A stretch of 64,000 nt of DNA from contig CANREL010000002.1 in NCBI GenBank assembly GCA_947629655.1, positions 79,152-143,151 on the forward strand, written 5' to 3'. Shown here one piece after another: positions 37,518 to 40,778 of the stretch (positions are counted from its first letter, which is position 1; each line of letters starts with the position of its first letter). The notes below the pieces were generated by a model. The model searched no databases, had not been told where the DNA came from, and worked only from the letters and a program-made list of their open reading frames with translations. The translations under genes were made by a program, and so were the position numbers. The stretch comes from an uncultured Bacilli bacterium. Lineage in GTDB: Bacteria > Bacillota_I > Bacilli_A > RF39 > UBA660.

Positions 37518-40500
37518 TTATTCACTTAGTTGAACAAAGTTCATATTTCCTTTACTATTGACGTTGACAACGATACTTCCATCACCTGCATACATGACAT
37601 CATTACTAGTATATTTGACGATTCTTTCAATCGCATCATTATTAGAAGAATTGAAAGAATTACTACTATTAGTGATGATACTATAACTAGGTTTAATATT
37701 TTTTAAAGCATCATTGACATTGTTTTCTTCGCTTCCGTAATTTGAAGCTTTATAAAGATCGATTTTACCTTTTCTATCTTTCAAGATTTCTTTGACGACC
37801 TCAACCTCTGTTTTAGACTTCAAATATTTACTATTTTTATCGTGATTAGCATTATAAATATCACCAGCTAAATACATGTTCTTACCATTGACAGTGGCAT
37901 AGGTAACAATCGAATTACTATTTTCATTACAATTGTGATTTTTCAAGCATTCAGCACTAAAATTCTTTAGACGATCTTGAGTATTGTATAAATACAATTT
38001 GAAATTACCGAGTTGTAAATTGGTTATCGAAGTCGTTATTGGAACGTAAGAAACATTGTTCGTAACTGCATCTTCTCTAATAGAAGTAAACATCGATAGA
38101 CGCATCTTTCTTCTTGATGTGATGTCTTCTGGAGAGATGAGGATATTGCCATCAACTCCTTTAAAATAACTATCACTACCTGAATAACTTTTCATGTAAA
38201 GACGACCAACTTTAATGTCACTCAACAAGATGTTATCACTCTCAATTCCTCCATAAACACCCCCAAAGCTCTCACTTTGAAAATGGGTGATCAAGATGAA
38301 CTCAAGTTTTTTAACACCGACGTCATGTAAGAAATTAATGACATCGACACTACTTATTGTACTACCTGTATCAATCATTGCATATTTGTCATTACTTTCA
38401 AATAAAATGGCATCACTAGGTGTCGAAGCTGATTTGTAAGTATCGATAAAATATACTTTATCTCCTTTTTCCAAAACCGTTAATGATATTTCTTCGATAT
38501 AATCATCAACTTTTATTTTCAACTTTGTTTTACCTGTTTTTAACCCTGTGACCACACCTTTTGAACTAACAGATGCGATACTAGGATTATCAACTGAATA
38601 TTTAATTTCTTTATATGTTGCATTTTCTGGTTTAATAGATGAAATCTTAATAGTTGTCTTTTCATCTTTAGTCAAAATGACTTGTGAATGAGATATTTTA
38701 AATGACTCAACCGGTACTTTAGAGACTGTCACCTTACACTCATCATACACACTAGTATTACTATTAGAAGTAGCTCTAATTGTCACTACTCCTTCTTTCA
38801 ATGCTGTTATCTTACCACCATTAGATACAGAGACAATACTATCATCACTACTCGTCCAGTTGACTTTAGTATCTGTAGCTATCGTCGGTAACACATTACT
38901 TCGCAAATTGATAGCTTGACCAACTGATAATTTAGCTTCATTGATATTTAGAGCCACTTTTTCAACTTTTATCTCCGTTACGTTTACAGCTGTCTCTGAG
39001 CTTATCTTACCAATGCTTGCCTTAACGACTGCCTTACCCTTTTTTAATCCCGTTATTATTCCGTGTTGATCAACTTTTAAAACACCTTCATCACTACTCG
39101 TCCAATTTATATCTTGACTATCAGCATTACTTGGATGAATGACCGCATTAATATTTTCACTCTTTCCTACTTCCAAAGTCATATTTTTAGGAGTTGTTAT
39201 GCCAGTAACTGCAATATCAGTATCTTTTACTTTAACAGTGACAGAATCATTGACACCATTTGTACTAGTAGCGGTAATAATCGCATTTCCAGCTCGTAAT
39301 CCCGTTACAACACCACTATTAGAAACAGTAGCAACAGAAGAATCACTAGATACATAAGTTACTTTATCGTGCGTTATATCGCTAGGTTCAAAAGTATATG
39401 TAACTTTAGTTTTTTCACCGATATCAATACTTTCTTTTTCAAGTTTAAGTTTTAGTTTTTTAGCTTTGACAATATCATTTTCTACACTTACTTCACATTT
39501 AGCTAAAATATTATTATTACCTTTGACAACAATAGTCGTACTTCCCTCTTTTAAAGCGGTTATTTCGCCTTTCGAATTGACACTAGCAACACTGCTATCA
39601 TTAGAAGTATAATTTATGAAACTGCTAGCATCATTTGGGTAAAAATAAGATTTTAATGTTACTTTGTCCCCAACAGCTAAATATAGACTAGTACTAGATA
39701 GATCAATTCTTTCAAGTTTTTTCTCAAGAATAGTTAACTCGACCTCACTTGAAATGTTTTCAGATGGCACACGAGCTGTAATAGTAGTTTTACCATTTTT
39801 TCGTGCTGTTATCTTACCACTTGAATCGATTGAAGCGACACTGGTATCACTGGAAGAGAAGACAACATGTGAACCAAGAGCTGTATCAGGACTTACTACA
39901 GCCACCGCATTTTTTATATCACCAACATACATCTTATCACTATCAATTGATAAGAAAATGTTATTGCTACTATCTTTTTTCTTGACATTGATGATTGTCG
40001 TATCTTTAAATCCCCCATCTTTAGTTGTAACTGTTATTCTCGTAACACCAGGATTACGAGCTGTTACAACGCCATTGGAATCAACCGTTGCGACAACATT
40101 ATCACTACTCGTCCAAATGGTATTTTGATCATATGCCGTAAAAGGGAAAACATTTGCAACCAATTTATTAGTATCACCAACGTACAAATTTACTGTCGGT
40201 GCATTTAGAGTAACTCCTGTAACAGCTTGTTTAACCGTTACTTCAATTGTCATTTCACCTTCAAGACCTAACTCTGAATAGGCATCATATATTGAAATAT
40301 CGCCATCATTTTCTTTTTCCTTACTTGAAGCAGGCTTATTATTAAAATCATTCTCATCAATATTTTTATATATCGTCACATTAGTCGTTCCACTAGCTTT
40401 AGCAACGATTGTTCCATCATCTTCGACATCGACAACACTGCTATCTTCTGACAATATGACACCACCATCATTGACGATGTCTTTCCCATCAGATAAACTT

Positions 40501-40778
40501 TGACCAGAAGTCAAATATAGTTTGGTTCGCTCATCAATATCTCTTTGAACAGTATATGCCTTATAAAAAAAGCCAGCTCCAATAATCACAATAAAAATAA
40601 CCGCAACTAATAGTCCACGATTTACAAAATTTTTCTCTGGAGTAGTTAAGAGTCTGACGTCATTACCATATATATCTTTATAATACTTTAATTCTCTATT
40701 ACCTTCTGCATCAAGATTATCGAGAAAATCATGGTTACCTTCAATTTTTAATCCCATATTACACACCCACTCTATCAT
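37518..40778 (-). CDS. Type-II membrane-anchored surface protein. It has seven Big_2 (bacterial Ig-like) repeats and a C-terminal metallo-beta-lactamase-fold domain resembling the ComEC C-terminus, with a degenerate metal motif.
   Basis: The repeat ...(A/V)(T/S)V(D/S)SNGVVTA(R/L)(K/N)PG(K/V)T.IT... occurs seven times. The C-terminus AMIDTGS...VKKLEFILITHFQSESFGG differs from the ComEC motif LTHxDxDHIGG. The TM segment is LLVAVIFIVIIGAGFFY. Confidence 0.75.
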   Translation of the reverse strand: MIEWVCNMGLKIEGNHDFLDNLDAEGNRELKYYKDIYGNDVRLLTTPEKNFVNRGLLVAVIFIVIIGAGFFYKAYTVQRDIDERTKLYLTSGQSLSDGKDIVNDGGVILSEDSSVVDVEDDGTIVAKASGTTNVTIYKNIDENDFNNKPASSKEKENDGDISIYDAYSELGLEGEMTIEVTVKQAVTGVTLNAPTVNLYVGDTNKLVANVFPFTAYDQNTIWTSSDNVVATVDSNGVVTARNPGVTRITVTTKDGGFKDTTIINVKKKDSSNNIFLSIDSDKMYVGDIKNAVAVVSPDTALGSHVVFSSSDTSVASIDSSGKITARKNGKTTITARVPSENISSEVELTILEKKLERIDLSSTSLYLAVGDKVTLKSYFYPNDASSFINYTSNDSSVASVNSKGEITALKEGSTTIVVKGNNNILAKCEVSVENDIVKAKKLKLKLEKESIDIGEKTKVTYTFEPSDITHDKVTYVSSDSSVATVSNSGVVTGLRAGNAIITATSTNGVNDSVTVKVKDTDIAVTGITTPKNMTLEVGKSENINAVIHPSNADSQDINWTSSDEGVLKVDQHGIITGLKKGKAVVKASIGKISSETAVNVTEIKVEKVALNINEAKLSVGQAINLRSNVLPTIATDTKVNWTSSDDSIVSVSNGGKITALKEGVVTIRATSNSNTSVYDECKVTVSKVPVESFKISHSQVILTKDEKTTIKISSIKPENATYKEIKYSVDNPSIASVSSKGVVTGLKTGKTKLKIKVDDYIEEISLTVLEKGDKVYFIDTYKSASTPSDAILFESNDKYAMIDTGSTISSVDVINFLHDVGVKKLEFILITHFQSESFGGVYGGIESDNILLSDIKVGRLYMKSYSGSDSYFKGVDGNILISPEDITSRRKMRLSMFTSIREDAVTNNVSYVPITTSITNLQLGNFKLYLYNTQDRLKNFSAECLKNHNCNENSNSIVTYATVNGKNMYLAGDIYNANHDKNSKYLKSKTEVEVVKEILKDRKGKIDLYKASNYGSEENNVNDALKNIKPSYSIITNSSNSFNSSNNDAIERIVKYTSNDVMYAGDGSIVVNVNSKGNMNFVQLSE

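Follow-up and report, generated by a model that had tools for sequence, protein, structure and literature searches.

Pce/CbpE, the teichoic-acid phosphorylcholine esterase of Streptococcus pneumoniae (structures 2bib and 1wra), and the C-terminal nuclease domain of ComEC/Rec2 (9ic4) are both extracytoplasmic phosphodiesterase modules of the metallo-beta-lactamase (MBL) fold, and to our knowledge they are the only extracellular modules of the Pce/ComEC-like kind that have been studied. A further module of this kind is encoded on a 64,000-nucleotide stretch from an uncultured Bacilli bacterium (contig CANREL010000002.1 of assembly GCA_947629655.1, positions 79,152 to 143,151 of the forward strand), which was analysed as a whole and is hereafter called the window. 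The product of this gene, the focal protein, is laid out from the N- to the C-terminus as a putative cytoplasmic tail, a transmembrane helix, a half-repeat, seven Big_2 (bacterial Ig-like group 2) repeats and a degenerate MBL-like head. Within one genome, it forms a natural matched pair with a second protein that has the same anchor and seven-repeat stalk, one head being intact and the other without most of its metal-binding residues, and the latter appears to be under selection in at least four taxa.

Pce is the closest solved relative of the focal head in both sequence and fold. As in the focal protein, an extracellular MBL module is carried on a surface-attachment module, and the DTG, (D/N)(D/E)NSNS and GD motifs are shared, with HxHxDH as the ancestral form of motif II. 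The two domains are about 25% identical and differ at the metal site, where His87 is replaced by Gln, His229 by Tyr and the Asp-His of motif II by Glu-Ser in the focal head. The order of the modules differs as well: in Pce the MBL domain is N-terminal and followed by C-terminal choline-binding repeats, whereas in the focal protein an N-terminal transmembrane helix and seven Big_2 domains precede a C-terminal MBL domain. No choline-binding repeats were found in the focal protein, for which Pfam gives Big_2-type Ig domains only, and membership in the Pce esterases was rejected because both the ligands and the choline-binding module are missing.

ComEC shares with the focal head the same MBL sub-group, the nature of an extracytoplasmic phosphodiesterase module and a DEN-type motif III Asn. 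Its motif II reads H598-x-D600-x-D602-H603 (PMC12455585), and replacement of the motif II aspartates in a ComEC C-terminal domain abolishes Mn binding together with phosphodiesterase/nuclease activity (PMC8579336). The ComEC of S. pneumoniae likewise carries metal-ligand substitutions. In contrast to ComEC, the focal protein has neither the channel nor the oligonucleotide-binding (OB) fold (DUF4131) and no link to DNA uptake, and the match between the two is weaker than that to Pce (profile E 9e-12; 15-22% identity).

CPSF100-CPSF73, IntS9-IntS11 and RNase J2-J1 are pseudoenzyme/enzyme pairs of the MBL fold, in which the inactive copy is kept for substrate binding or partnering. In the N-terminal half of Trz1 (PMC7785958), CPSF100, IntS9 and RNase J2, the fold has been retained and the ligands lost, as in the focal head; these are, however, intracellular RNA-processing proteins of the beta-CASP and tRNase Z branches, whereas the focal protein is Pce-like and probably displayed on the surface. 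Inactive MBL paralogues are well known inside cells. A pseudoenzyme of this fold is unsurprising in itself, and the focal protein, a modest variant of a known family, overturns nothing. In architecture it resembles the fibrillar adhesin-like proteins, where a tandem Ig-like stalk (here of Big_2 domains) presents one distal globular domain, but its polarity is reversed (N-terminal anchor, C-terminal head), it has no sortase signal and its head is enzyme-derived, unlike any known adhesive domain. A literature search on Big_2-stalk proteins with Pce-like heads, dead or alive, found no relevant paper.

Fold and family of the head

Modelled with AlphaFold2 from an alignment of 26 relatives, the head is confidently predicted to be an MBL alpha-beta/beta-alpha sandwich (mean predicted local distance difference test score, pLDDT, 91; predicted template-modelling score 0.92). 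Foldseek returned 400 PDB matches for the model at E<=1e-3, and all of the 50 matches listed have the MBL fold. Pce/CbpE (2bib/1wra) came top, with E-values of 6e-20 to 2e-19 and template-modelling (TM) scores of 0.70-0.74, followed by the MBL domain of ComEC (9ic4; E 6.7e-15, TM score 0.63/0.74), other MBL-fold proteins being much weaker. The preliminary description of this DNA had proposed a C-terminal MBL fold similar to the C-terminus of ComEC; the fold is upheld, as structure prediction gave no unrelated one, and an alignment to the ComEC domain does exist, since the head aligns end to end with the MBL domain of the window's own ComEC (22% identity, pairwise E 2e-8). The place of closest kin, however, belongs to Pce, which was the sole protein matched when the head was searched with phmmer against all PDB sequences (1wra, 2bib; E 2e-16), and which a profile of the family matched at 1.7e-48, against 9e-12 to 5e-8 for the ComEC structures.

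Moreover, the family consensus of motif II is HxHxDH, the Pce type, while that of ComEC is HxDxDH (HGDYDH in the window's comEC). The head is an MBL fold of the Pce/ComEC sub-group with Pce as the nearer branch, and because Pce rather than ComEC is the closer kin, the lost activity is better termed 'phosphodiesterase' than 'nuclease'. The Pfam model Lactamase_B (PF00753) matches only the N-terminal 48 residues of the focal head and scores 18.4 bits, under the cut-off of 22.7; an orthologue (P0002, 27.5 bits) and the second paralogue of the genome (P0004, 37.3 bits) both lie above it. Membership in the superfamily holds despite the sub-threshold score because of the fold and the homology. Among the NCBIfam models, none came near its threshold with the focal protein.

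A word-indexed protein search with the head gave one distant match only (P0001), and relatives had to be sought with HMMER throughout all 1.84 billion cluster representatives, which yielded 773 relatives at E<=1e-3, 118 of them at E<=1e-10. Similarly, when genome contigs were scanned, the full protein as query matched nothing, and a pattern from a 6-sequence alignment worked (the 26-sequence alignment, A2, was too diverse). Judged from the 773 representatives, Pce/ComEC-like MBL modules are widespread on the surface proteins of uncultured gut Firmicutes: the relatives come from Bacilli, Clostridia, 'Tenericutes/Acholeplasmataceae'-labelled and other metagenome-assembled genomes (MAGs) of uncultured gut bacteria, with ruminant, human and bird sources. 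Their MBL heads are fused to signal peptides, dockerin, Fn3-like or Big_2 modules, which fits a head that serves as an extracellular module. In two of them, P0005 (437 aa) and P0006 (locus L006), the head is joined to a type I dockerin in one and to an Fn3/GH85_C-like domain plus one Big_2 in the other, and such fusions indicate that the head module has been shuffled among the surface-display systems of gut Firmicutes. A larger relative, P0003 (1517 aa), has the same transmembrane anchor and juxtamembrane segment, eight Big_2 domains and two intact Pce-like MBL heads in tandem, which suggests that the heads of this family may work in pairs.

Degeneration of the metal site

Ligand conservation was taken from ~145 aligned representatives, one per 50%-identity cluster. 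The focal head contains AMIDTGS, THFQSES, CNENSNS, LAGD and KASNYG. It keeps the motif I Asp (100% in the family), the first His of motif II (99%; H61 in domain numbering), the motif III Asn (99%; N182) and the bridging Asp of motif IV (100%; D202). At five residues the head departs from the family: the second His of motif II (92%, with Asp, the ComEC type, in another 6%) is Q63, the motif II Asp (99%) is E65, the last His of that motif (99%) is S66, and the His-His of motif V (86-88%) has become N242-Y243. The replacement of HxHxDH by HFQSES, on which the preliminary description had rested its case for degenerate metal ligands, is confirmed, and the loss in motif V, absent from that description, is to be added to it.

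Comparison with Pce, whose residue numbers are read here as one above the positions in PDB chain 1wra_A, leads to the same picture. Taking His85, Asp89, His90 and Asn183 of Pce to be ligands as well, the equivalents of His85, Asn183 and Asp203 are present in the focal head, whereas Asp89 is replaced by Glu and His90 by Ser. In the HMMER alignment, Q63 lies opposite His87, D202 opposite Asp203 and Y243 opposite His229, three residues that are metal ligands of 2bib (PMC2916828). In the MBL scheme, the residues lost (the Asp and last His of motif II and the His of motif V) all serve a single one of the two metal sites, and the second site is largely retained, apart from a His-to-Gln loss in the focal species. 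The loop after motif II is modelled with lower confidence (block mean pLDDT 69). Beside motif III, C173, C179, E181, N182 and N184 are invariant in alignment A3, and the invariant Cys pair is compatible with a disulfide.

Orthologues and conservation of the head

Heads that are degenerate in the same manner are found in orthologue P0002 from ENA metagenome contigs (head 63% identical to the focal one; motif II HFHSES, motif V NY), in L004 from the goat-rectum MAG 'Bacilli bacterium RGIG3038' (61%; HFHSES, DY) and in L005 from the MAG 'Bacillota bacterium SIG201' (58%; HFHGNN, NH). All three share one gene order, in which a hypothetical gene, a 4HBT thioesterase, the focal gene, a YcxB-like gene, a DUF3267 gene and a PlsC acyltransferase follow one another, and the neighbour proteins at these loci share 48-85% identity with their counterparts in the window. 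Compared with P0002, the focal protein has 63% identity in the head and 55% in the Big_2 array. The old ligand positions vary among the orthologues (Q/H, E/N, S/N, N/D and Y/H), and the flanking residues are invariant; beside the old site, the clade has invariant residues of its own, namely Y71-G72, which lie in the inserted loop, and a second set, Y204 and A206, which closely follows the Asp of motif IV.

At least four diverged taxa, and several samples, have an unbroken open reading frame (ORF). In addition, the sequence with its degenerate motif recurs in independent Logan/ENA assemblies, where no more than a single residue, located in the stalk, is changed (1 aa in P0159), and since independent assemblies carry the identical motif, its loss is not an assembly artefact. 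The degenerate head is best read as a maintained pseudoenzyme, neither an error nor a decaying gene, because the orthologues degenerate alike in synteny, the head is more conserved than the stalk and the invariant residues are clade-specific. Such a pattern of conservation points to a fold that has been retained for another use, whether non-catalytic or altered. The dead-head clade is small and rare, being represented by a handful of contigs.

In one low-coverage ENA assembly (a 5212-bp contig), a frameshift at motif II (~38280 in the window) splits the gene into P0160 and P0161, of 865 and 225 aa (…EFILI|KVRALG…). Either the assembly is wrong at this point or the allele is truly disrupted.

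Gene limits, anchor and stalk

The focal gene is a single minus-strand ORF with its stop codon at 37518-37520 and in-frame ATGs at 40829, 40778 and 40757 (Table 1). Of the three, the ATG at 40757 (MGLKIEG...) has the best support and is most likely the true start, because orthologue P0002 begins with MGMKIDN at the equivalent position and because a promoter-like site sits upstream of 40757, where it overlaps or crowds the earlier ATGs; the start at 40778 assumed in the preliminary description is the less likely choice. Promoter-like sites were no more numerous in the consensus scan than in shuffled sequence. The 1103-aa form is on record as a protein from an NCBI contig of 233 kb; exact look-ups of the contig index with it and with the 1079-aa form gave no match.

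The Kyte-Doolittle scan of the focal protein gave one peak only, at aa ~41-71, the hydrophobic helix itself spanning aa ~45-68, and a regular-expression search found no LPXTG-like motif in it. The N-terminal transmembrane helix is taken as the cell-envelope anchor, which presumes the topology proposed below. The part before the helix, a tail of ~45 aa, has no recognisable signalling domain in the Pfam and NCBIfam scans or in an N-terminal search. Its motif RELKYYKDIYGNDVRL(L/M)T is near-invariant across all four dead-head orthologues and missing from P0004. The N-terminal search matched orthologue fragments only, so that the motif was seen in no other protein and is tied to no known module.

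The seven Big_2 repeats named in the preliminary description were recovered both by Pfam (PF02368; seven stretches, E 1.1e-76) and by a hidden Markov model (HMM) built from the repeats themselves, in which domains 2-8 are full repeats with independent E-values (i-E) of 1e-21 to 1e-29. Ig-like domains measure ~4 nm each in length. A stalk of seven would be roughly 25-30 nm long, enough to span a Gram-positive wall. Display on the surface is deduced from the single hydrophobic segment, the lack of LPXTG, the fusions of the relatives, the invariant Cys pair and the fact that the organism is walled; on the last point, the window (G+C ~29%) holds genes for FtsW/RodA, VanY and YfhO with a GT2 glycosyltransferase, which speak for a Gram-positive-type envelope, as well as comEA-comEC.

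Table 1. Features of the focal gene and of related genes in the window (aa, amino acids)
Feature	Position	Strand	Details	Basis
Focal gene	37518..40757	-	1079 aa from the likeliest start; maximal ORF to 40829, 1103 aa	ORF list, orthologue start, collinearity with P0002 and P0004
Promoter-like site TTTACT-18-TATTAT with TG (extended -10)	40783..40812	-	match to consensus only	consensus scan
Cytoplasmic motif RELKYYKDIYGNDVRLLT	40644..40697	-	nearly invariant in 4 orthologues, absent from P0004	alignments, translations
Hydrophobic segment GLLVAVIFIVIIGAGFFY, read as N-terminal transmembrane anchor	40563..40616	-	sole such segment	Kyte-Doolittle scan
Juxtamembrane half Big_2-like segment	40362..40484	-	aa 92-132; HMM positions 32-61 only	self-built repeat HMM, i-E 1.2e-11
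Seven full Big_2 repeats	38502..40211	-	aa 183-752	Pfam, repeat HMM
C-terminal MBL-fold domain, Pce/CbpE-like	37521..38465	-	315 aa (aa 765-1079); degenerate metal site	AlphaFold2, Foldseek, phmmer
Motif II remnant T-H-F-Q-S-E-S	38268..38288	-	for T-H-x-H-x-D-H	sequence, family frequencies, Pce alignment
Remodelled loop FGGVYGGIESDNILLSDIKV after motif II	38208..38267	-	clade-specific; ~6-aa insertion relative to P0004; clade-invariant Y71-G72	alignment
Cys pair (CLKNHNC), then NENSNS with motif III Asn	37911..37949	-	all kept; NENSNS at 37911-37928	
Motif IV LAGD	37860..37871	-	bridging Asp kept (Pce Asp203 equivalent)	family alignment, Pce alignment
Motif V remnant KASNYG	37734..37751	-	for K-A-H-H-G; Y aligned to Pce His229	family and Pce alignments
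comEC	53860 to at least 55881	-	intact SHGDYDH / GDA / GHHG	DUF4131, Competence, Lactamase_B
3' end of second paralogue	63527..64000	-	157 codons and stop; intact motif V (AHHG)	100% identity over 157 aa to P0004

The second paralogue

At its end, the window cuts through a partial gene that the preliminary description had regarded as a paralogue of the focal gene. The alignment of this fragment to the C-terminal half of the focal head (35% identity, E 1e-24) is far beyond chance and bears that view out. The extension that had been proposed there was achieved with ENA contig L002, which is 100% identical to window positions 61524-64000 (2477 bp) and runs 8.5 kb past the window end, and it yielded the whole paralogue, P0004. 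This protein of 1058 aa comprises a transmembrane helix, a juxtamembrane segment, seven Big_2 domains and a C-terminal MBL domain, and is collinear with the focal protein at 38% identity in the stalk and 34-36% in the head. The motifs of its head are intact (THFHSDH / CNENSNS / SGD / AHHG), and Pfam recognises the domain as Lactamase_B (37 bits). Downstream of the paralogue, 55 bp beyond its stop codon, lies a tRNA-Met(CAT) gene (63395-63471, minus strand).

The head of P0004 clusters with those of P0006, P0008 and P0011 (~50% identity) and not with the focal clade (34%), from which it follows that the duplication is old or that the dead head diverged fast. The members of this subclade, which come from gut Bacilli and Clostridia, are hydrolases of the MBL fold that are displayed on the surface and still uncharacterised; P0004 itself has a plan like that of the focal protein. 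The two genes are on the same strand, 23 kb apart, and not co-operonic. In the MAGs RGIG3038 and SIG201, which carry the dead copy, no P0004-like gene was found among 80 of 101 loci, these MAGs being incomplete.

Possible roles of the head

The explanation to which we incline, somewhat above even chance, is that the focal protein is a wall-spanning stalk with a non-catalytic, Pce-like binding head, that is, a pseudoenzyme. The protein would be type-II-like, with its N-terminus and the ~45-aa tail inside the cell and one transmembrane helix; the seven Big_2 domains would form an extracellular stalk that crosses the wall, and the MBL head would stand outside, at the tip. Derived from extracellular binuclear-metal phosphodiesterases, the head would have lost the binuclear phosphodiester chemistry and may act as a binding module, the probable ligand being a phosphodiester-linked surface polymer or another phospho-ligand that is cut by the active relatives. 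Some observations weigh against this. The isoelectric point of the head varies among the orthologues from 5.1 to 8.9, and the net charge with it, giving no clue to a shared ligand, DNA or other, and no choline or lic genes were found among the ~40 ORFs scanned in the 64-kb window. Three of the four orthologues still have the H-x-H, the Asn of motif III, the bridging Asp and a Glu where the Asp stood, a set that could bind one metal, and the authors of PMC8579336 remark of S. pneumoniae ComEC that comparable conservative changes do not necessarily put an end to metal binding.

It is accordingly conceivable, although we consider it unlikely, that the head is still an enzyme, a mononuclear or re-liganded metallo-hydrolase that works through His61, His/Gln63, Glu65, Asn182 and Asp202, possibly with a changed preference for substrate or metal. 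Ligands of the site-1 type and the bridging Asp are kept, the H-x-H stands in three of the four orthologues, the change from Asp to Glu is conservative and of the sort that may spare activity in S. pneumoniae ComEC (PMC8579336), and the domain as a whole is strongly conserved. However, the old ligand positions vary while their surroundings are invariant, which is what is expected once the constraint of the metal is gone; the same positions are 86-100% fixed in the ~145 relatives, and L005, with HFHGNN, has no acidic residue at the Asp position at all. That the loss has gone further, leaving a functionless, decaying remnant on a stalk that alone matters, or that the motif change is a sequencing or assembly artefact, is very improbable. 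The Lactamase_B score below threshold and the one low-coverage assembly that splits the gene at motif II (P0160/P0161) could be cited for it, but diverged taxa and several samples have the ORF unbroken, independent assemblies agree on the motif, the identity of the head exceeds that of the stalk and the fold is predicted with high confidence. This reading was rejected on grounds of conservation and reproducibility.

Two further readings concern what the head might do instead. In the one, which we hold improbable in either of its versions, the dead head is the partner subunit of the active P0004, paired with it at equal stalk height as an extracellular analogue of CPSF100-CPSF73, IntS9-IntS11 or RNase J2-J1, or it belongs to a transmembrane receptor that detects a phospho-ligand of the wall or the host and signals through RELKYYKDIYGNDVRL. 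Both paralogues have the same anchor and seven Big_2 domains (1079 and 1058 aa), which would place their heads at equal height; P0003 bears two MBL heads in tandem; inactive MBL partners are recurrent, Trz1 among them (PMC7785958); and the cytoplasmic motif is near-invariant in the clade. On the other hand, the incomplete RGIG3038 and SIG201 MAGs hold no P0004-like gene among the loci covered, the distance between the two genes and their separate transcription units speak against a partnership, and the tail has no recognisable signalling domain. In the other, the head is a ComEC-type nuclease module for DNA uptake, an idea to which the alignment with the window's ComEC domain and the Foldseek match to 9ic4 lend some colour and which is nevertheless highly unlikely: the focal protein has no Competence channel (PF03772) or DUF4131 domain in Pfam, the family consensus is HxHxDH and not the HxDxDH of ComEC (PMC12455585), Pce is much closer, the window has a complete comEA-comEC pair elsewhere and the catalytic ligands of the focal head are lost. 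Membership in ComEC was rejected, as channel, OB fold and motif II type are all lacking.

If the focal protein is indeed a stalk with a binding head, the active/dead pair may help to reveal the role of the active family, since the dead copy might serve to trap the substrate, and it would illustrate the reuse of enzyme folds as binding modules at the bacterial surface. Should the head instead prove to be a partner or a receptor, it would be the first MBL pseudoenzyme on a cell surface to have a defined role in regulation or scaffolding.

Genomic context

With the 4HBT thioesterase upstream and PlsC downstream, the focal gene is embedded in lipid-metabolism genes. Downstream of the locus there are two tandem genes for PlsC-type acyltransferases (34961-36199, minus strand; 7361-9109 in L001). 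In L001, L004 and L005 the PlsC genes are separated by ~1.8 kb, and the first of them is followed in L001 by a gene of the AMP-binding (acyl-CoA ligase-like) type. On the other side, two genes for ABC exporters, each with fused transmembrane and ATPase parts, lie at 41291-44876 (minus strand) between the 4HBT thioesterase gene and a gene for a hypothetical protein of 298 aa. The latter two genes are adjacent in the syntenic relatives L001, L004 and L005, from which it follows that the ABC genes are an insertion in the lineage of the window or have been lost in the others.

The comEC gene, described earlier as bona fide and as having an intact HGDYDH motif, is confirmed as such by its DUF4131, Competence and Lactamase_B domains. 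It belongs to a complete comEA-comEC pair (53860-56575, minus strand), in which comEA, with SLBB and HHH_3 domains, is immediately upstream; the comEC frame is open upstream of its first listed start codon and abuts comEA.

A gene for a YfhO-family membrane protein (919 aa) overlaps that of the GT2 glycosyltransferase (47887-51580, minus strand). Pairing of YfhO with GT2 serves teichoic-acid glycosylation in Bacillus and Listeria, and its presence here implies the production of teichoic-acid-like polymers, a class to which the substrates of the MBL heads may belong. A tRNA-Arg(CCT) gene is located downstream of the GT2 gene, at 47774-47849 (minus strand).

In the part of the window with the lowest G+C content (~20-24%), an RHS-repeat protein of 2044 aa is encoded at 9062-15196 (minus strand). 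Beside it, at 15222-15893 and 15913-16935, are genes for a protein with a phage baseplate Gp10_C-like domain and for an SH3_3 protein, and the region may be an island related to polymorphic toxins or contractile systems.

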